In this document: piece by piece, positions 34,463 to 62,347 of the stretch
How the letters are laid out: every line of letters begins with the position of its first letter
Position numbering within the stretch: position 1 is the stretch's first letter
Virus record (IMG/VR): IMGVR_UViG_3300025389_001063
Reading direction: 5' to 3' (one strand)
DNA length: 64,000 nucleotides
Source of the DNA: a virus
Taxonomy: Duplodnaviria > Caudoviricetes
Translations under genes and position numbers: made by a program
Notes under the pieces: model-generated
Told to the model about the DNA's origin: nothing
What the model saw: the letters and a program-made list of their open reading frames with translations, nothing else
Database searches by the model: none

Positions 34463-36010
34463 ATGACAGGACTGGTAGGTATAAGAGCAGCATCAAGTTC
34501 AGCAGGACCCGGAGATGCTTTTTCAGGATCTCCTATTCTTTCTGGATCATCTTTTGCTTCTGGATCGTCGTTACCACCTACAAGTGATTCATTTTCTTCT
34601 ATAGGTGGATTAGGAAACTATTCAACAGCAAATGTTAGTCCTTCTCAATATCAAGGAGGTTTTGGTTCAAGCGGACAAAATGCAGGTCAGGCAGCAGCAG
34701 ATTCAACTGCTAGTCAATCAAGTTCTAGTAGCAGTAGTGACAATACTGGAAAAAATCCTCAAAGAGGTTCTAGTACTAGAAAAAGAATGAGACGTGTTGA
34801 TAATAAAGATTCTAGTTTAAGAGAACCACAACCAGCAGATGATAGAGTTAAATCTGCAACTAGTGATGATGCTGATATGTTCTTGGGTTTAAAAAGTTTA
34901 ACACAAGAAGGAAGTAGTGGAAATAATGATGGTAGTTCTTTTTTAATTGATAGTATTCCTCCTAACTTAAACGGTGTAATACAAAGTTTTGTTCCTCAAG
35001 TAGCAGGAATGCAATCATTATTAGGACAAATACCTAGTGCATCTTTAGGACAATTTTTAAATAATATACCATCAAGTTTACAAAGTTTATTACCAGCAGG
35101 AATGTTACCGGGAGTAACAAGCGGTTCTAATGTAAATTTAAGTACTATACAAAATTTAGCAAGCCAAGCAGGATTATCACAAAGTGCATTGTCAGGGTTA
35201 TTAGGATCTAATGTAGGTAGTTCTGGAGGCAGTGGGTCTTTGCCAAGTCTTGCAAATGGTTTACAAAGTTCAGCGATATCGGGACTTTCACAAGCAATTC
35301 CTTCCAATATTGCTCAATCATTGTTCAATCCTAGTCAATTAACCAGTATGCTTCCTGCTAATTTACAAAACTTAATTCCTCAAGTTCCTCCAATATTCTC
35401 AGAAGGTGCAGAAAATCTTACATCAGCAGTAGCAAATGCTGCTCCTCAGATGGCTCCAAATAGCGACCAACCTAGTGGTGGTCAGGGAAGTAATGGATGT
35501 AACCATGTTGATCCTTCCAACGATGGAAAAAATAATACTAATACTCGTTATATTGATTATACACAAATGTTGTCACAAAATTTCTCCCTAGGTCAATTAA
35601 CACTCTTGTCTGGTGTTGCTCCTGGTAGATTCCCACTAAGCGGAAAAGATTTAGATAAAGTTACTAAAAGTCTTTCTGGCGTTGCAGAAAATGTTTTAGA
35701 ACCTTTAAAAACTGCTTATGGAGCATTTACTATTGTAGGTGGACTAAGAGATGATGGCGAACATAAGGATGGAAAATGTATAGATCTTTCATGGGCATGT
35801 AGTCAAACCAAATTAATGGAAATTGCTCAATATGTACAAAACAGTCTTCCTGTATCCGAAGTTCAAATGCATCAAGGAAAAGGAAATGTAGGTTGGTTGC
35901 ATATTAAATACGACAATGGATCTTGTGGTGCTAGTGCCCAAACAAATAGTCCAGCAGGTGGACAAACTTCTGGATTAGTTGATTGGTCAACAATTCCATA
36001 TACATTTTGA
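34463..36010 (+). CDS. Gly/Ser-rich virion protein with a C-terminal M15-like peptidase domain
   Basis: LSQNFSLGQLT, NVLEPL...G, GEHKDGKCID and WLHI motifs. Confidence 0.65.
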   Translation: MTGLVGIRAASSSAGPGDAFSGSPILSGSSFASGSSLPPTSDSFSSIGGLGNYSTANVSPSQYQGGFGSSGQNAGQAAADSTASQSSSSSSSDNTGKNPQRGSSTRKRMRRVDNKDSSLREPQPADDRVKSATSDDADMFLGLKSLTQEGSSGNNDGSSFLIDSIPPNLNGVIQSFVPQVAGMQSLLGQIPSASLGQFLNNIPSSLQSLLPAGMLPGVTSGSNVNLSTIQNLASQAGLSQSALSGLLGSNVGSSGGSGSLPSLANGLQSSAISGLSQAIPSNIAQSLFNPSQLTSMLPANLQNLIPQVPPIFSEGAENLTSAVANAAPQMAPNSDQPSGGQGSNGCNHVDPSNDGKNNTNTRYIDYTQMLSQNFSLGQLTLLSGVAPGRFPLSGKDLDKVTKSLSGVAENVLEPLKTAYGAFTIVGGLRDDGEHKDGKCIDLSWACSQTKLMEIAQYVQNSLPVSEVQMHQGKGNVGWLHIKYDNGSCGASAQTNSPAGGQTSGLVDWSTIPYTF

Positions 36011-36037
36011 CACAATCTAAATCCTATGCTATAAATA
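36007..36037 (+). promoter_or_regulatory. Composite early/late promoter for the tmRNA
   Basis: TTGACA (36007-36012), N17, TATAAATA (36030-36037). Confidence 0.7.
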
Positions 36038-57892: not shown

Positions 57893-57982
57893 GGTGGGGT
57901 GCCTGAGAGGTCGAAAGGAGCGGTTTGCTAAACCGTCGTACCGGAAACGGTACCCAGGGTTCGAATCCCTGTCCCACCGCCA
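57893..57982 (+). tRNA. tRNA-Ser (GCU)
   Basis: Long variable arm, G73 and encoded CCA. Confidence 0.95.
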
Positions 57983-58874: not shown

Positions 58875-59078
58875 ATGACTGTTGTAGATTTTGTTGTTTT
58901 TCAAGAAAAACAAAAACTTGTTAGAGAACTTAAAGAATGGCGTGAGAGACTTAATTTGGCTTATGAATTTGATTGGAAAGATCCCAGTAAACAAATATGT
59001 CATAGTGAAGTAGAAAGATTAAGAAAACTAGTCGAAATCGATGAAACAATTATTGACAAAATTTCTAAACATGTATAA
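58875..59078 (+). CDS. Hypothetical protein
   Basis: AGGAG SD. Confidence 0.55.
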   Translation: MTVVDFVVFQEKQKLVRELKEWRERLNLAYEFDWKDPSKQICHSEVERLRKLVEIDETIIDKISKHV

Positions 59079-59088
59079 AGTAAGTAAT

Positions 59089-59310
59089 ATGTTTCGACTT
59101 AAAAACTATATAGATTTTAATCATCTAAAAGAAATTAATTCGGGTTATTTCAAACATCTTTTTATAGCACTCTATTTTGTGTTTATAACTATTATTAGCG
59201 CCGTTACTGGATTAATACATGCTTTCATTCCTTTCCTATTTCCATTCACTCCTTACCTTCTTGTTAAAAAAGTAGTAGATGGAACTGAAAAATATTTCAT
59301 GAAAAAATAA
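59089..59310 (+). CDS. Small membrane protein (DUF6356-like pattern)
   Basis: HLKEI...YFKH...A...LIHAFIPFLF. Confidence 0.5.
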   Translation: MFRLKNYIDFNHLKEINSGYFKHLFIALYFVFITIISAVTGLIHAFIPFLFPFTPYLLVKKVVDGTEKYFMKK

Positions 59311-59311
59311 A

Positions 59312-60040
59312 ATGGAATTTCAAAAGATTTTAGAAGAAGGTATTACAATTCATAGTTCGGGTTCTTCCGGACCTTCAAAACCATTCTTCCAACCACCTAA
59401 AAAAATTAGAGCAGCAAATAGAATTTCTAGGATTGTTAACGGACTTACTGGAACTAGTAGAATCTATACTGTTATGAAAATGGATCATGCTGGTGGATTA
59501 TTTGGACAAACTCTTCCTGGTTATGAAATTGGAGCAATGACTATAATTGAAAAATTTAGTCCATATACGTTTATTAAAAATATAAAAAGATTTTCTCATT
59601 CACATATTACTCCATTACATGCTAAAGCAATAATGAAAACAAAAGGATTTAAAGATATTGATTTATCAAATATTACTATTATGTGTGGGGCAGAACCTGT
59701 TACTTGGGATATTATAGAAGCATTTGTATCTAAAGGATGTATATTTATTACTAATTGGGGAATGAGTGAAATAGGTCCTACAGCAATTAATTATAAATTT
59801 AAATCAATAGAAGAAGTTAATTATGTTAAAAGTATTTGTCCAAAAGATGCTACAATATTAGGAAATAAAAAGTATTGTGAATATAAAATAGATAATGAAG
59901 AATTAGTGGTAAAAGGTGATATTTGTATTTTCGATAATTGGTATTATACTAAAGACAAAGTTGTAGAGATAGATGATATATTATTTTATTCTGGAAGAAT
60001 AAATTTGGACGTAGACTTTAATAATCCAAAAAAAGGTTGA
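59312..60040 (+). CDS. Truncated adenylate-forming (AMP-binding) enzyme
   Basis: SSGSSGPSK, WGMSEIGP, YYTKD and YSGR motifs; only 242 aa. Confidence 0.65.
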   Translation: MEFQKILEEGITIHSSGSSGPSKPFFQPPKKIRAANRISRIVNGLTGTSRIYTVMKMDHAGGLFGQTLPGYEIGAMTIIEKFSPYTFIKNIKRFSHSHITPLHAKAIMKTKGFKDIDLSNITIMCGAEPVTWDIIEAFVSKGCIFITNWGMSEIGPTAINYKFKSIEEVNYVKSICPKDATILGNKKYCEYKIDNEELVVKGDICIFDNWYYTKDKVVEIDDILFYSGRINLDVDFNNPKKG

Positions 60041-60067
60041 CATGTTTCTAATCTTCGTGTATAAATA
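60037..60067 (+). promoter_or_regulatory. Composite early/late promoter of the tRNA operon
   Basis: TTGACA (60037-60042), N17, TATAAATA (60060-60067). Confidence 0.8.
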
Positions 60068-60096
60068 AAAGACAATAAGGAAACGTGAGTTCAAAA

Positions 60097-60168
60097 ATGA
60101 ATCAACGCAATAATCAAATTAGTATGGTATGCTGGTATGAAAATACCAGTCGGGGTCTTGCGTGGTGA
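60097..60168 (+). CDS. Attenuator leader peptide MNQRNNQISMVCWYENTSRGLAW (23 aa, not in ORF track)
   Basis: Read directly from the sequence. An in-frame alternative GTG start exists at 60085. The last codons overlap the 5' strand of the antiterminator. Confidence 0.7.
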   Translation: MNQRNNQISMVCWYENTSRGLAW

Positions 60169-60224
60169 TTTAAGAATCACATATACGTTTACAAGACCCT
60201 GGAAGTAAAATTCCGGGGTTTTTT
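60150..60224 (+). promoter_or_regulatory. Transcription attenuator: antiterminator 60150-60202 versus terminator 60196-60224
   Basis: GGGGTCTTG pairs with CAAGACCCT. ACCCTGGAA-GTAAAA-TTCCGGGGT-TTTTT is the terminator. The two share 60196-60202. Confidence 0.8.
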
Positions 60225-60242
60225 ATTGAGAGGAGAACGAAT

Positions 60243-60398
60243 ATGAAGTGGCCTAAACTAATACAAAAGATGTATAAAGCAATTATAGAACGTGATGAAG
60301 ATAAAGAAAAAGAGTTATACTTCAAAGCCATGAAGAAAAACTTCAAGGACAAGAAGGAAGAAAAGAAGATTACTGCTAAAAAGACTATTATAAAGTAG
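60243..60398 (+). CDS. Small Lys/Glu-rich protein (51 aa, not in ORF track)
   Basis: GAGGAG SD; first gene after the attenuator. Confidence 0.6.
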   Translation: MKWPKLIQKMYKAIIERDEDKEKELYFKAMKKNFKDKKEEKKITAKKTIIK

Positions 60399-60404
60399 TA
60401 ATCT

Positions 60405-60416
60405 TGTTGTTTGACA
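60405..60416 (+). promoter_or_regulatory. boxA-like antitermination element
   Basis: TGTTGTTTGACA resembles rrn boxA TGCTCTTTAACA and lies 26 nt before the first tRNA. Confidence 0.45.
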
Positions 60417-60441
60417 GTGTGAATAAGAATTTAGCATTTTT

Positions 60442-60516
60442 GCTCCCTTCGTCTAGCGGTTAGGACGTCGCCCTTTCACGGCGAAAACAGGGATTCGAAT
60501 TCCCTAGGGAGCACCA
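60442..60516 (+). tRNA. tRNA-Glu (UUC)
   Basis: Cloverleaf with encoded CCA. Confidence 0.95.
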
Positions 60517-60520
60517 ATAT

Positions 60521-60595
60521 GCTAGTGGGTCGGTATGGCATCGAAAGACTCTCATAAGATCTTCAAAATTGGTTCAATTCCAATCATTAGCACCA
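60521..60595 (+). tRNA. tRNA with CAU anticodon (elongator Met or Ile2), atypical
   Basis: Acceptor and T arms are intact, with CTCATAA loop and CCA. It has G at position 8 and a C-A mismatch in the anticodon stem, and lacks initiator features. Confidence 0.75.
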
Positions 60596-60606
60596 ATAAA
60601 TAATAT

Positions 60607-61290
60607 ATGCGTTTAATAATTTTAGGTGATAGTGGAGCAGCTGGAGATCATTCTTGGCCTAAGAAATTATCAAATAAACTAAATTGTGAATTAATAAATT
60701 TTGCCAAGCCTGCTGCACAAATTCTTTTACAAATACAATTAATGCAAGATTGGCTAATTGATAATGATTTAAATAAAAATGATATTATTATTTGGCAAAT
60801 AGGATGGTCTCTACATTCTGTTGTACATATAGGACACGAACATTTAGATTCCGTTCAAAAAGCAGATAGATTTGTAAAAAATAAATTGTTTATTTCTCAT
60901 TATCATATAAGAGACAATAAAATCGATAATAAAAAAAGAATATCTTTATTACCTATTAGTCCAATTCTTCATAAATTTTCTAATAGAAAAAAACCAAATG
61001 ATGATGCAGAAGTACTTCATCAATTACTTTTTATGCTTGTAATATTAAAGAAATTATGTCCTCACATATTAGTTACTCAATCACAAGAAGAATTTGTTAA
61101 GGACGAACATTGGAAAAACTTTAAAAAAATATTAATAGAAAAAGATATTGACTTTATCGAAGAAGGTATGTATAATTGGTGTATAAGTAATAACTTAGAT
61201 ACAGAATTTTTTCATCCAACTAACGAATCTTATGGTATATATGTAGAACAAAAAATATATCCTAAATTAAAAAGTTTAGGTTGGATATAG
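60607..61290 (+). CDS. SGNH/GDSL-like hypothetical protein
   Basis: ILGDS, WPKKL...NFAKP and FHPT motifs; ATAAATA lies 4 nt before the ATG. Confidence 0.55.
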   Translation: MRLIILGDSGAAGDHSWPKKLSNKLNCELINFAKPAAQILLQIQLMQDWLIDNDLNKNDIIIWQIGWSLHSVVHIGHEHLDSVQKADRFVKNKLFISHYHIRDNKIDNKKRISLLPISPILHKFSNRKKPNDDAEVLHQLLFMLVILKKLCPHILVTQSQEEFVKDEHWKNFKKILIEKDIDFIEEGMYNWCISNNLDTEFFHPTNESYGIYVEQKIYPKLKSLGWI

Positions 61291-61323
61291 GTAGACCTGA
61301 TAAATAATTATAGGAGGTCTACC
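61290..61323 (+). promoter_or_regulatory. SD-sequestering hairpin with a late promoter in its loop
   Basis: GGTAGACCT / AGGTCTACC stem; the loop contains ATAAATA and the 3' arm contains the AGGAGG SD. Confidence 0.75.
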
Positions 61324-61326
61324 AAT

Positions 61327-61755
61327 ATGCCTAGAGGAATTAAAGGAATACCAAAAACTTATCTTTGCTTACATTGTGGAAAAGAGAATAAATTCAGCTT
61401 TAGTAGTACAAATAAGTTTTGCGATAATAAATGTCAAAAAGAATTTGAAGGTAAAGAAAAAGTTAAACTATGGTTAAAGGGAGATAAAGAACCAACTAAA
61501 AGTATCATAGTTAGATATCTAAAAGAAACTAAAGGATATAAATGTGATGTTTGTGGTTTATCTGAATGGAACGGATCATCTATAACATTAGAAATTGATC
61601 ATATAGATGGCGACTCAACAAACAATCATCCTTCCAATTTTAGATACATGTGTCCAAACTGCCATTCGCAAACACCTACATATAAAGGTGGAAATAAAGG
61701 TAATGGCAGACCAAGACATCAAAAGGATTATACAATAATACGCTCTCTTAGTTAA
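61327..61755 (+). mobile_element. HNH endonuclease inside the tRNA array
   Basis: CDVCG, LEIDHIDGDSTNNHPSNFRYMCPNCHSQT; the stop codon lies within tRNA-Thr. Confidence 0.88.
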
Positions 61756-61815
61756 ATGGTATAACAGCTGATTAGTAATCAGTTATTGGCAGTTCGATTC
61801 TGTCAGAGAGCACCA
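61742..61815 (+). tRNA. tRNA-Thr (AGU)
   Basis: GCTGA-TTAGTAA-TCAGT anticodon arm, GCTCTCT/AGAGAGC acceptor stem and CCA. Confidence 0.9.
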
Positions 61816-61820
61816 TTTAA

Positions 61821-61894
61821 GCCGACATAGTGTAGTGGTAGCACGAGAGATTGTGGATCTTTTAGTCCAGGATCGTTACCCGGTGTCGGTACCA
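61821..61894 (+). tRNA. tRNA-His (GUG), no G-1, A73
   Basis: AGAGA-TTGTGGA-TCTTT anticodon arm; preceded by A; discriminator A; atypical T loop ATCGTTA. Confidence 0.85.
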
Positions 61895-61899
61895 TTTAT

Positions 61900-61976
61900 T
61901 GGCGTGTAGCTCAGTTGGTTAGAGCATTCGACTGATAATCGAAAGGTCGGTGGTTCAAATCTACCCATGCCAACCA
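61900..61976 (+). tRNA. tRNA-Ile (GAU)
   Basis: Canonical cloverleaf with CCA. Confidence 0.95.
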
Positions 61977-61981
61977 GTTAT

Positions 61982-62066
61982 GGGGGAATGTCCCGAGCGG
62001 CAAAGGGGGCGGACTGTAAATCCGCTGGCTAAGCCTTCGTAGGTTCGAGTCCTACTTCCCCCACCA
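61982..62066 (+). tRNA. tRNA-Tyr (GUA)
   Basis: Long variable arm and CCA. Confidence 0.95.
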
Positions 62067-62067
62067 T

Positions 62068-62141
62068 AGAGGTAAAGTGTTACGATAGCACATCGGTCTC
62101 CAAAACCGAGGGCGTGGGTTTGACTCCTACTACCTCTGCCA
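62068..62141 (+). tRNA. tRNA-Trp (CCA)
   Basis: TCGGT-CTCCAAA-ACCGA anticodon arm, G73, CCA; T loop TTTGACT. Confidence 0.92.
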
Positions 62142-62156
62142 AAATTTGTCGCGCTT

Positions 62157-62268
62157 GACCCGTCGCGGCAGACTTCCATACAATGCTTGGGAGTCAAATA
62201 AGTCCTACATCAACTGTGTAGGGGTATAATAGTCCGCATTCCAAAGCGTACTCGCTAACGGGTTGCCA
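62157..62268 (+). ncRNA. Candidate ncRNA with a tRNA-type acceptor stem and 3' GCCA but a non-tRNA body
   Basis: GACCCGT / ACGGGTT-G-CCA encloses three hairpins; it occupies a slot between tRNA-Trp and tRNA-Cys. Confidence 0.5.
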
Positions 62269-62272
62269 AATT

Positions 62273-62347
62273 GGGGAGGTGCCAGAACGGTTATGGGAAG
62301 GTCTGCAAAACCTTTATATGTGGGTTCGATTCCCATCCTCCCCTCCA
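62273..62347 (+). tRNA. tRNA-Cys (GCA)
   Basis: AAGGT-CTGCAAA-ACCTT anticodon arm, U73 and CCA. Confidence 0.93.

Follow-up and report, generated by a model that had tools for sequence, protein, structure and literature searches.

Directly 5' of the main tRNA gene cluster in a giant phage from freshwater and in related phages, we identified a conserved module that consists of a very short leader ORF followed by a terminator and an alternative antiterminator. The stretch of phage DNA analyzed here (64,000 nt, referred to as the window) carries one such locus, and 13 more distinct loci were found in related freshwater pmoC jumbo phages (n = 14 in total). Common to all 14 are an ORF of 23–25 codons, a hairpin within this ORF, an antiterminator that overlaps an intrinsic terminator, and a stop codon placed within the 5' half of the antiterminator (Table 1). 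On the basis of these sequence elements, their conservation, their co-variation and their linkage to tRNA genes, we favor, with some confidence, the interpretation that the module is a translation-coupled transcription attenuator of the trp/his type that heads the main tRNA cluster of the phage. The pace of ribosomes over the tiny ORF would then probably tune transcription of the tRNA genes.

Table 1. Features of the leader module and of the genes 3' of it, in window coordinates.
Feature	Start	End	Strand	Detail or basis
Promoter-like TTGACA-N17-TATAAATA	60037	60067	+	TTGACA 60037–60042; TATAAATA 60060–60067
5' untranslated leader	60068	60096	+	Nearly invariant columns among homologs
Leader ORF, 23 codons, MNQRNNQISMVCWYENTSRGLAW	60097	60168	+	Stop TGA 60166–60168
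Region 1, ACGCAA, codons 3–5	60105	60110	+	Complementary to region 2 core UUGCGU; candidate anti-antiterminator
P1 hairpin, GCUGGUAU-GAAA-AUACCAGU	60131	60150	+	Within codons 12–18 (C-W-Y-E-N-T-S)
Antiterminator (2:3)	60151	60201	+	Truncated-transcript folding
Intrinsic terminator (3:4)	60193	60224	+	Stem 60196–60204:60211–60219, loop GUAAAA, U6
51-aa Lys/Glu-rich ORF	60243	60398	+	Strong SD GAGGAG 60230–60235; first gene 3' of terminator
Decayed internal promoter, TTGACA without good -10 box	60411	60440	+	Comparison with relatives
tRNA-Glu(UUC) and tRNA(CAU)	60442	60595	+	First tRNAs 3' of the putative switch
tRNA-Thr(AGU), His, Ile, Tyr, Trp, 131-nt spacer, tRNA-Cys	61742	62347	+	tRNA search

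Identity across the module is 67–88% among the 14 distinct loci. At the nucleotide level, the module is 82–88% identical, compared with 72–77% for the flanking protein gene. tRNA genes always occur immediately 3' of the module. The 5' neighbor varies between loci, and may be an AMP-binding-like gene, a 232-aa gene, a 240-aa gene, a 66-aa/DPBB gene or tRNA-Ser. Synteny indicates that the module is independent of the upstream 242-aa gene in L083, L085, L086, L089, L090, L093 and L094, and it is entirely absent from more distant homologs of this gene. The hairpin is thus almost certainly not a mere terminator of the 242-aa gene beside an unrelated promoter. The -35 box at 60037 does overlap the stop codon of that gene, as such an arrangement might suggest, but the promoter is 5' of the terminator rather than 3', and a module that moves separately from the gene contradicts this explanation. 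Searches with model R1 returned one match in the window and one in L087; the window phage has a single module.

The composite promoter motif occurs twice in the 64 kb, where 0.02 copies are expected; the second copy is located at 36007. The -35 box and GTATAAATA are retained in 13 of 14 homologs, the exception being L093 (TTGACT). Alone, TATAAATA shows no enrichment in the window (10 seen and 9.8 expected), so a role as a late promoter is at most putative. The promoter and 5' untranslated leader have a mean pairwise identity of 85%, compared with 72–77% in the flanking protein gene. A Shine-Dalgarno (SD)-like AAGGA is present at 60077–60081, 15 nt 5' of the ATG, and GUGAG at 60085–60089. Most homologs have a poor SD, with AAGGA 15 nt away and just GAG close to the ATG.

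The leader ORF is preserved among homologs despite in-frame indels of 3 nt; in L086 the ATG has been relocated, and in L089 a TAG stop comes earlier. The position of the stop codon, which in the window (60166–60168) sits on the 5' side of the antiterminator's apical hairpin, is invariant except in L089, where it occurs 3 nt earlier. In the variable zone, frame 0 has no stops in 141 codons, 49% NAN codons and a single GNN codon, a frame-specific bias; frame +1 is likewise almost open (2 stops). The codons TGG TAT GAA (Trp-Tyr-Glu) are invariant in all homologs. The C-terminus of the leader peptide drifts (SRGLAW, ARGVLVR and KQGVLTM all occur). That the peptide sequence is not conserved argues for translation per se, and not for a functional peptide.

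Truncated transcripts of every homolog, including L094 and L096, fold into P1 and the antiterminator. P1, which is possibly a pause hairpin, has 94.8% of cells paired on alignment A3, and G-C to G-U changes are confined to its 3' arm. The basal helix of the antiterminator pairs CGGGGUCUUG (60151–60160) with CAAGACCCUG (60192–60201) and is extended by CGUG/UACG and GUGAUU/AAUCAC; a middle helix (60161–60164:60184–60187) and an apical hairpin (60165–60170:60175–60180) complete the fold. The terminator, ACCCUGGAA-GUAAAA-UUCCGGGGU plus U6 (60196–60224; −17.6 kcal/mol), has a GC-rich stem of 9–12 bp, and 92.8% of its cells are paired over 12 homologs. An automated terminator scan of the window did not list it. 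The 5' arm of the terminator (60193–60204) overlaps the 3' arm of the antiterminator (60192–60201), which makes the two folds mutually exclusive.

A further pairing involves codons 3–5 of the leader. Complementarity between this segment (region 1) and region 2 occurs in 11 of 12 homologs and changes in concert: ACGCAA:UUGCGU in the window, ACGCCA:UGGCGU in L018, CUAUGCAA:UUGCAUAG in L089 and GCAUAAG:CUUAUGC in L086. It is weak in L085, and in L094 and L096 region 1 pairs with a shifted partner. As the candidate anti-antiterminator strand, region 1 would complete a trp-like layout of 1:2, 2:3 and 3:4 pairings. Each locus's own 2:3 pairs have energies of −14 to −18 kcal/mol. In permutation tests, the own pairing ranks within the best 2 of 5,040 for 2:3 and the best 4 of 5,040 for 1:2 (with a looser definition of 1:2 the rank is weaker, 387 of 40,320), values that overstate independence because the homologous loci are related to each other. 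Column-wise covariation in a model-fitted alignment was not above that of shuffles; the covariation support derives from register-shifted helices in divergent members.

A previous, sequence-only reading of this DNA had proposed a trp/his-type attenuator, and this core is supported by the ORF and folds in 14 loci, by co-variation within the 2:3 and within the 1:2 arms, and by the module's linkage to tRNA genes. Every sequence feature that it listed was found in its place, including the composite promoter (60037–60067), the 23-codon ORF (60097–60168), the antiterminator, here given co-varying arms of 60151–60160 and 60192–60201, the mutually exclusive terminator, and eight downstream tRNAs plus a tRNA-Ser(GCU) at 57893. 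It described the 2:3 and 3:4 pairings and overlooked region 1 as a candidate anti-antiterminator.

The 163-nt leader folds far better than shuffled sequences (z = −4.96; 0 of 200 shuffles as good), and the 5' untranslated leader and the 5' arm of P1 are invariant beyond what pairing requires. Both observations would be expected of a ligand- or protein-controlled riboregulator, in which a phage or host protein or an uncharged tRNA stabilizes one fold and the ORF is incidental. We consider this very improbable, given that it accounts for neither the ORF, the replaced start nor the placement of the stop, and that no riboswitch model matched. Specifically, no T-box model (specifier loop, T-box sequence, stem I) matched in the window, L085, L086 or L089. 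With Rfam 15, the module had no match at E ≤ 1 (window) or E ≤ 0.1 (L085, L086 and L089), the output consisting of tRNAs and sub-threshold chance matches.

For the attenuator, we infer that the ORF is translated and that ribosome position determines which fold forms. Transcription from a strong promoter (60037) would produce a leader of roughly 150 nt bearing the 23-codon ORF. Region 1 could pair with region 2 (60151–60164), region 2 with region 3 (60184–60201) to form the antiterminator, and region 3 with region 4, giving the terminator that precedes U6. With no ribosome loaded, 1:2 would form and the terminator would follow. A ribosome that reaches the UGA inside region 2 would mask this region, again leading to termination. 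A ribosome stalled in codons about 2–10 (perhaps up to the invariant Trp-Tyr-Glu) would cover region 1 and leave region 2 free, so that the antiterminator forms and RNA polymerase continues into the 51-aa ORF, tRNA-Glu, tRNA(CAU) and beyond. The stall-productive codons were previously placed at 8–17; we replace these by about 2–10 (at most about 15), because region 1 corresponds to codons 3–5. Equilibrium folding combined with a ribosome footprint yields the terminator state at almost every codon position, so a switch of this kind must be kinetic.

In 11 of 14 loci, tRNA-Glu(UUC) occupies the first or second tRNA position 3' of the module; L085, L094 and L096 are the exceptions. An intact promoter, TTGACA-N17-TATATT or TATAGT, separates the terminator from tRNA-Glu in most relatives, thus the tRNAs in those phages do not depend on read-through. 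The tRNAs at 61742–62347 are on the same strand, 3' of two protein genes (one of 227 aa, the other an HNH endonuclease), and could be driven independently by further promoter-like sites at 61148 and 62155. The earlier claim that the module gates the array is therefore too strong. These promoters are also what might be expected if the module were an independent small gene that encodes a structured small RNA (perhaps with a small ORF), in which the alternative fold is no switch and the tRNAs have their own promoters. It would then be a promoter-to-terminator unit whose full-length minimum-energy structure is compact, in the terminator state and closed by long-range pairs. The same composite promoter type is found 5' of another putative stable RNA at 36007, and the other tRNAs of the phage have plain promoters and no leader. 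We regard a small RNA as unlikely nonetheless, since it leaves unexplained why the ORF persists through indels, start relocation and a stop shift despite a drifting peptide, and why the antiterminator pairing, useless in a terminated RNA, co-varies. The lack of an Rfam family match also counts against it.

If the module is an attenuator, the identity of the signal may be sought in the codons of the leader, whose composition is mixed and enriched for the identities of downstream tRNAs. The predicted stall-productive zone includes Asn, Ile, Met, Lys, Thr, His, Gln, Arg, Phe, Tyr, Cys, Trp and Glu, mostly identities of downstream tRNAs, so slow decoding by these species would raise transcription of the cluster. 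In six loci, 11/16 (window), 14/17, 17/17, 15/17, 13/17 and 16/17 of the sensing-zone residues are matched by a cognate tRNA gene in the 6 kb downstream, compared with 1–2 of 5–6 tail codons in five of the six loci and 5 of 7 in L094 (Fisher p 0.0004 to 0.037); the zone limits and the 6-kb distance were picked once an initial codon-level test over 4 kb had given no tracking. The last 5–7 codons of the leader are not enriched for downstream tRNA identities. For the whole leader compared with array identities, p is about 0.02–0.03. The number of window leader codons read by array tRNAs is unremarkable (8 of 22; p = 0.29). The sequence-only reading had counted seven of the eight array identities within ten codons (8–17), a correct count with a probability of <0.001 under a proteome null, for codons chosen post hoc.

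In the specific version of that reading, the leader audits precisely the tRNAs of the array, with one codon for each, gates the array and evolved to supply tRNAs on demand against anticodon nucleases. That leaders sample the tRNAs of their arrays holds as a group-level enrichment. The suggested comparison of leader composition with each array gave weak locus-specific tracking at the identity level (own-array assignment, 7 of 720 permutations among related loci) and none at the codon level within 4 kb downstream. Codons for Asn, His, Tyr, Lys and Gln are abundant in the leader zone, and enzymes such as colicin E5 and PrrC classically target the corresponding tRNAs. One study (PMC10264068) proposes phage tRNAs as a counter to tRNA-cleaving nucleases. 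Still, the window is the poorest match of the six loci, with Gln, Arg, Val and Ser codons that have no downstream tRNA, Asn present four times and His absent. Furthermore, L018 keeps the invariant CWYE core yet has no Trp or Tyr tRNA within 12 kb downstream, and the gate would be bypassed by internal promoters. Thus, an audit in this strict form is quite unlikely, and a link to anticodon-nuclease defense is speculation. It is possible, though doubtful, that the attenuator leader is a general sensor of decoding speed, composed of the amino acids that the phage's own tRNA cluster serves, such that a shortage of the corresponding host tRNAs (due to codon-usage mismatch, host shut-off or anticodon-nuclease cleavage) stalls ribosomes in codons 2–15 and increases the supply of replacement tRNAs.

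Attenuation coupled to ribosomes is an established mechanism in amino-acid operons and in one synthetase operon. Like trpL, hisL, pheL, thrL and leuL, the phage module has a short leader ORF, alternative 2:3 and 3:4 pairings with a candidate 1:2 pairing, an intrinsic terminator, a stop codon that would let the terminating ribosome mask region 2, and an intra-leader hairpin as a possible pause signal. It differs from trpL/hisL-type leaders in being phage-encoded and in having an additional hairpin, P1, that stands by itself between regions 1 and 2. It is set apart from plain members of this type because the leader lacks a tandem run of one regulatory codon and the downstream genes are tRNAs and the 51-aa ORF, not biosynthetic enzymes. 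The multivalent leaders of ilvGMEDA, ilvBN and thr likewise report several amino acids or tRNAs from one leader, but with repeated codons of 2–3 amino acids, whereas the phage leader has 10–14 different residues, mostly once or twice each. The pheM leader of pheST attenuates a component of the translation apparatus, in that case a chromosomally encoded bacterial aminoacyl-tRNA synthetase, via Phe codons; the phage module would control tRNA genes themselves. T-box riboswitches also exert terminator/antiterminator control in response to tRNA status, but they act by direct binding of uncharged tRNA and lack a leader ORF. A full-text literature search found no published trp-operon-style control of tRNA genes, or in phages.

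It has long been asked why tRNA genes are carried by large phages and how they are expressed. With a conserved ribosome-coupled switch 5' of a tRNA cluster, translation performance itself would regulate the supply of tRNAs and, if the leader does sense decoding speed, a virus would have demand-driven tRNA supply. This would connect phage tRNAs with current work on tRNA-targeting defense. The element is roughly 200 nt in length, which makes the idea directly testable, and the 14 loci with co-varying alternative pairings provide a basis for the design of mutations.

The 51-aa ORF has no Pfam or PHROG family and no relatives detectable by word search or in Atlas. It is missing from other relatives of the phage and present in the window, L013, L085 and L086.

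All of the elements that the sequence-only reading had assembled into a leader-peptide attenuator were found in the window where it had placed them, from the promoter-like site to the downstream tRNA genes. The module has the architecture of trp/his-type attenuators, including a candidate 1:2 element. Unlike in these, no single regulatory codon occurs in a run, and the genes downstream are tRNA genes. No published description was found of leader-peptide attenuation acting on tRNA genes, or of any in phages. Judged from the sequence, an attenuator is probably the best explanation of the module.

The fold of the leader is much more stable than those of shuffled sequences (z = -4.96). The terminator was missed by the built-in promoter/terminator scanner, and Rfam scans of the module region in the window and three relatives returned tRNAs only. 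The composite promoter-like sequence occurs in only two copies in the window. As a late-promoter motif, TATAAATA alone is not enriched there, so the late-promoter label is unproven. A different frame contains another 23-codon ORF (MKIPVGVLRGDLRITYTFTRPWK) that overlaps both leader and antiterminator; it is present in the window, L013 and L086 only (L-numbers denote the related phage loci compared), and is probably not a gene.

Features of the module and its surroundings (window coordinates unless a locus is named)
Feature	Position	Remarks
DUF6356 gene and short (242-aa) AMP-binding-like gene	59041-60040	pair conserved in many contigs of freshwater phages
Promoter-like TTGACA-N17-TATAAATA	60037-60067	sequence
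Other copy of the composite	36007-36037	
Leader ORF	60097-60168	23 codons
Region 1 (ACGCAA)	60105-60110	codons 3-5
P1 hairpin	60131-60150	within leader codons 12-18
Second ORF (MKIPVGVLRGDLRITYTFTRPWK)	60137-60208	another frame
Antiterminator	60151-60201	three-tier stem-loop; basal 3' arm overlaps terminator 5' arm
Partner of region 1 (UUGCGU)	60158-60163	antiterminator 5' strand
Intrinsic terminator	60193-60224	good, U6
Gene order 3' of terminator		SD + 51-aa ORF, tRNA-Glu, tRNA(CAU), two protein genes, Thr/His/Ile/Tyr/Trp/Cys tRNAs
TGTTGTTTGACA	60405-60440	-35 region of tRNA-Glu promoter
HNH endonuclease gene	61327-61755	3' end overlaps tRNA-Thr start by 14 nt
tRNA-Trp/tRNA-Cys spacer	62142-62272	131 nt
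Promoter-like TTGACC-N18-TACAAT	62155-62184	within the spacer
Structured RNA, ~85 nt	L085:2439-2525; L086:7454-7540; L089:5728-5815; L094:2822-2905; L096 about 2660-2745	L096 on reverse strand
tRNAs Asn GTT, Asp GTC, Ser TGA, Leu TAG, Lys TTT	L087:11631-19854	window's own phage, downstream of window

Relatives of the module were gathered via flanking-gene anchors and DNA-pattern scans. Thirteen further distinct copies were identified (L013, L015, L018, L066, L083, L085, L086, L089, L090, L091, L093, L094 and L096), counting once each the same locus L066/L068 and the nearly identical L091/L092. Short-pattern matches were mostly due to chance and were removed by blast or a covariance model: real matches numbered 2 of 61 for a 19-mer in metagenomes (L066, L068) and 0 of 27 in the genome collection (best 19.7 bits). 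Two exact-word scans of the leader in IMG/VR gave no matches, and blastn against 50,697 phage records recovered no relative of the locus except tRNAs and the HNH gene. Both the module and the adjacent tRNAs are missing from IMG/VR loci whose upstream gene shares 44-48% identity, and from the more distant L080-L082. Because distant homologs of the upstream gene come without the module, synteny was reached through closer relatives. The 227-aa protein, for which the IMG/VR search gave no relative, has relatives in a large protein collection that served as synteny anchors. Neither it nor the 51-aa protein has a Pfam or PHROG family, and the 51-aa ORF has no relatives by word search or in Atlas.

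The leader ORF spans 23-25 codons in every module copy. Every indel within it (window, L015, L094/L096) has a length divisible by three, and the 1-nt indel of L013 is located in the 5'UTR. In L086 the usual ATG is lost, and a new in-frame ATG, 10 nt further upstream, is better spaced from the SD. L089 ends one codon earlier, at TAG. Peptide conservation among module copies is limited to C-W-Y-E. The C-termini (SRGLAW, ARGVLVR, TGRVLMR or KQGVLTM) follow nucleotide rather than amino-acid constraints. Retention of length and frame alongside a drifting peptide is consistent with a leader in which translation counts and the product does not. Frame 0 of the variable zone contains 0 stops in 141 codons, with 49% NAN codons and just one GNN; frame +1 is nearly open too, with 2 stops.

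In every homolog, truncated transcripts fold into P1 plus an antiterminator that takes up the 5' arm of the terminator. The basal arms of the antiterminator vary by clade with complementarity retained: GGGGUCUUG:CAAGACCC in the window, GGGGUUC:GAACCCC in L085, GGGUUCUUAUGC:GUAUAAG(C)AACCC in L086 and CGGGGUUCUAA:UUUGGAACCCCG in L096. Among seven clade representatives, the assignment of each arm to its own partner (2:3) is within the best 2 of 5040 permutations. Pairing of the terminator across homologs is 93%. Column-wise covariation in a model-fitted alignment was not above shuffles, owing to the similarity of most members and the register shifts of the divergent ones.

Codons 3-5 of the leader (region 1) are complementary to part of the antiterminator 5' strand (region 2), and the two partners change in concert across relatives (ACGCCA:UGGCGU, CACGUCA:UGGCGUG, GCAGCGCAA:UUGCGUUGU, CUAUGCAA:UUGCAUAG and GCAUAAG:CUUAUGC). 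Own 1:2 pairing ranks 4 of 5040 permutations, and 387 of 40320 under a looser definition; in L094 and L096, codons 3-5 pair instead with the apical part of the antiterminator. Region 1 would thus supply a trp-like 1:2 element, the fourth segment of the module. When a ribosome footprint was slid along the transcript, equilibrium folding gave the terminator state at nearly all positions; this element would explain such a preference of full-length transcripts. The predicted switch must therefore be kinetic and ribosome-dependent, which equilibrium folding cannot probe.

With no ribosome on the leader, 1:2 would pair and transcription would terminate; a ribosome at the UGA, inside region 2, would also lead to termination. 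A ribosome that stalls while its A site is at about codons 2-10 would cover region 1, allowing the antiterminator to form and the polymerase to read through. The latest productive stall would be at codon 15, before the ribosome front edge gets to 60151. The stall codons proposed earlier, 8-17, overlap this predicted zone only partially.

Leader composition was compared with the tRNA set of each array. No tracking was seen when loci were compared at the codon level in 4-kb windows (0.43 vs 0.42). A second test, refined after this failure, was made at the identity level, with loci having 6 kb of downstream sequence only and with the stall-productive (sensing) zone only. Zone residues with a cognate downstream tRNA gene numbered 11/16 in the window, 14/17 in L018, 17/17 in L068, 15/17 in L085, 13/17 in L089 and 16/17 in L094, the window being the weakest match. 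In the tail, the last leader codons, 1-2 of 5-6 matched in five of the six loci (5/7 in L094). Overlap of the zone and tRNA sets gave Fisher p values of 0.0004-0.037, for related loci and with limits set post hoc. Assignment of leaders to their own arrays ranks 7 of 720, which is weak tracking. The sensing zone and most downstream clusters alike lack Leu, Ala and Gly and have almost no Ser or Pro. CWYE is retained in L018 although no Trp or Tyr tRNA was seen nearby. The mirroring of downstream tRNA identities by leader residues is suggestive; this grading reflects both the relatedness of the loci and the refinement of the tests once the first had failed.

The upstream neighbour of the module differs among loci (an AMP-binding-like gene, a 232-aa gene, a 240-aa gene, a 66-aa/DPBB gene or tRNA-Ser). 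Only one module was found per locus, and a tRNA block always lies downstream, either directly or past the 51-aa ORF and/or a conserved structured RNA. In 11 of the 14 distinct loci, tRNA-Glu(UUC) comes first or second among the tRNAs. In most relatives the terminator is followed, ahead of tRNA-Glu, by an intact promoter (TTGACA-N17-TATATT or TATAGT); read-through is thus predicted to add to tRNA transcription rather than to be its sole route. This promoter is decayed in the window and L090, where the -10 box is lost, and read-through may be of greater weight in the window. The more specific proposal, that the leader audits the tRNA pool and gates the array against nucleases, is in part supported by the zone/tRNA identity match, but the poorer match in the window and the intact promoters of most relatives speak against it, and we consider it unlikely.

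The conserved structured RNA (ACAGGCTGCTGCTCCCT..GCATAAGAGCAGCCCTCGAC..GTACGTGG..CGTACAAGTGGTTTC.GCGAGG) separates the first tRNA from the module (or 51-aa ORF) in five relatives. Covariation is seen in two of its hairpins. The window lacks this RNA, and Rfam gave no match to it.

Letter-identical copies of the 242-aa protein encoded upstream of the module occur on lake-metagenome contigs of up to about 352 kb, where the neighbours include stand-alone pmoC/AmoC, dnaK, ribonucleotide reductase and many tRNAs. Such a setting agrees with the freshwater pmoC jumbo phages of PMC7674155, a paper with no mention of promoters, terminators or tRNA regulation. For the DUF6356/AMP-binding-like pair, a protein search gave 267 relatives, often beside pmoC and a DPBB/RlpA-like gene.

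The spacer between tRNA-Trp and tRNA-Cys yielded no tRNA call and no Rfam match. The HNH gene within the tRNA block looks like a recent homing-endonuclease insertion, because some relatives (for example L015, L083 and L091) pass directly from a 229-aa gene to tRNA-Thr with no HNH gene between. Beyond the window, five further tRNAs occur one at a time between protein genes within the next 10 kb. The promoters of other tRNAs of this phage are plain; among the five, tRNA-Asn, the one whose upstream region was read, is directly preceded by a plain promoter-like site.
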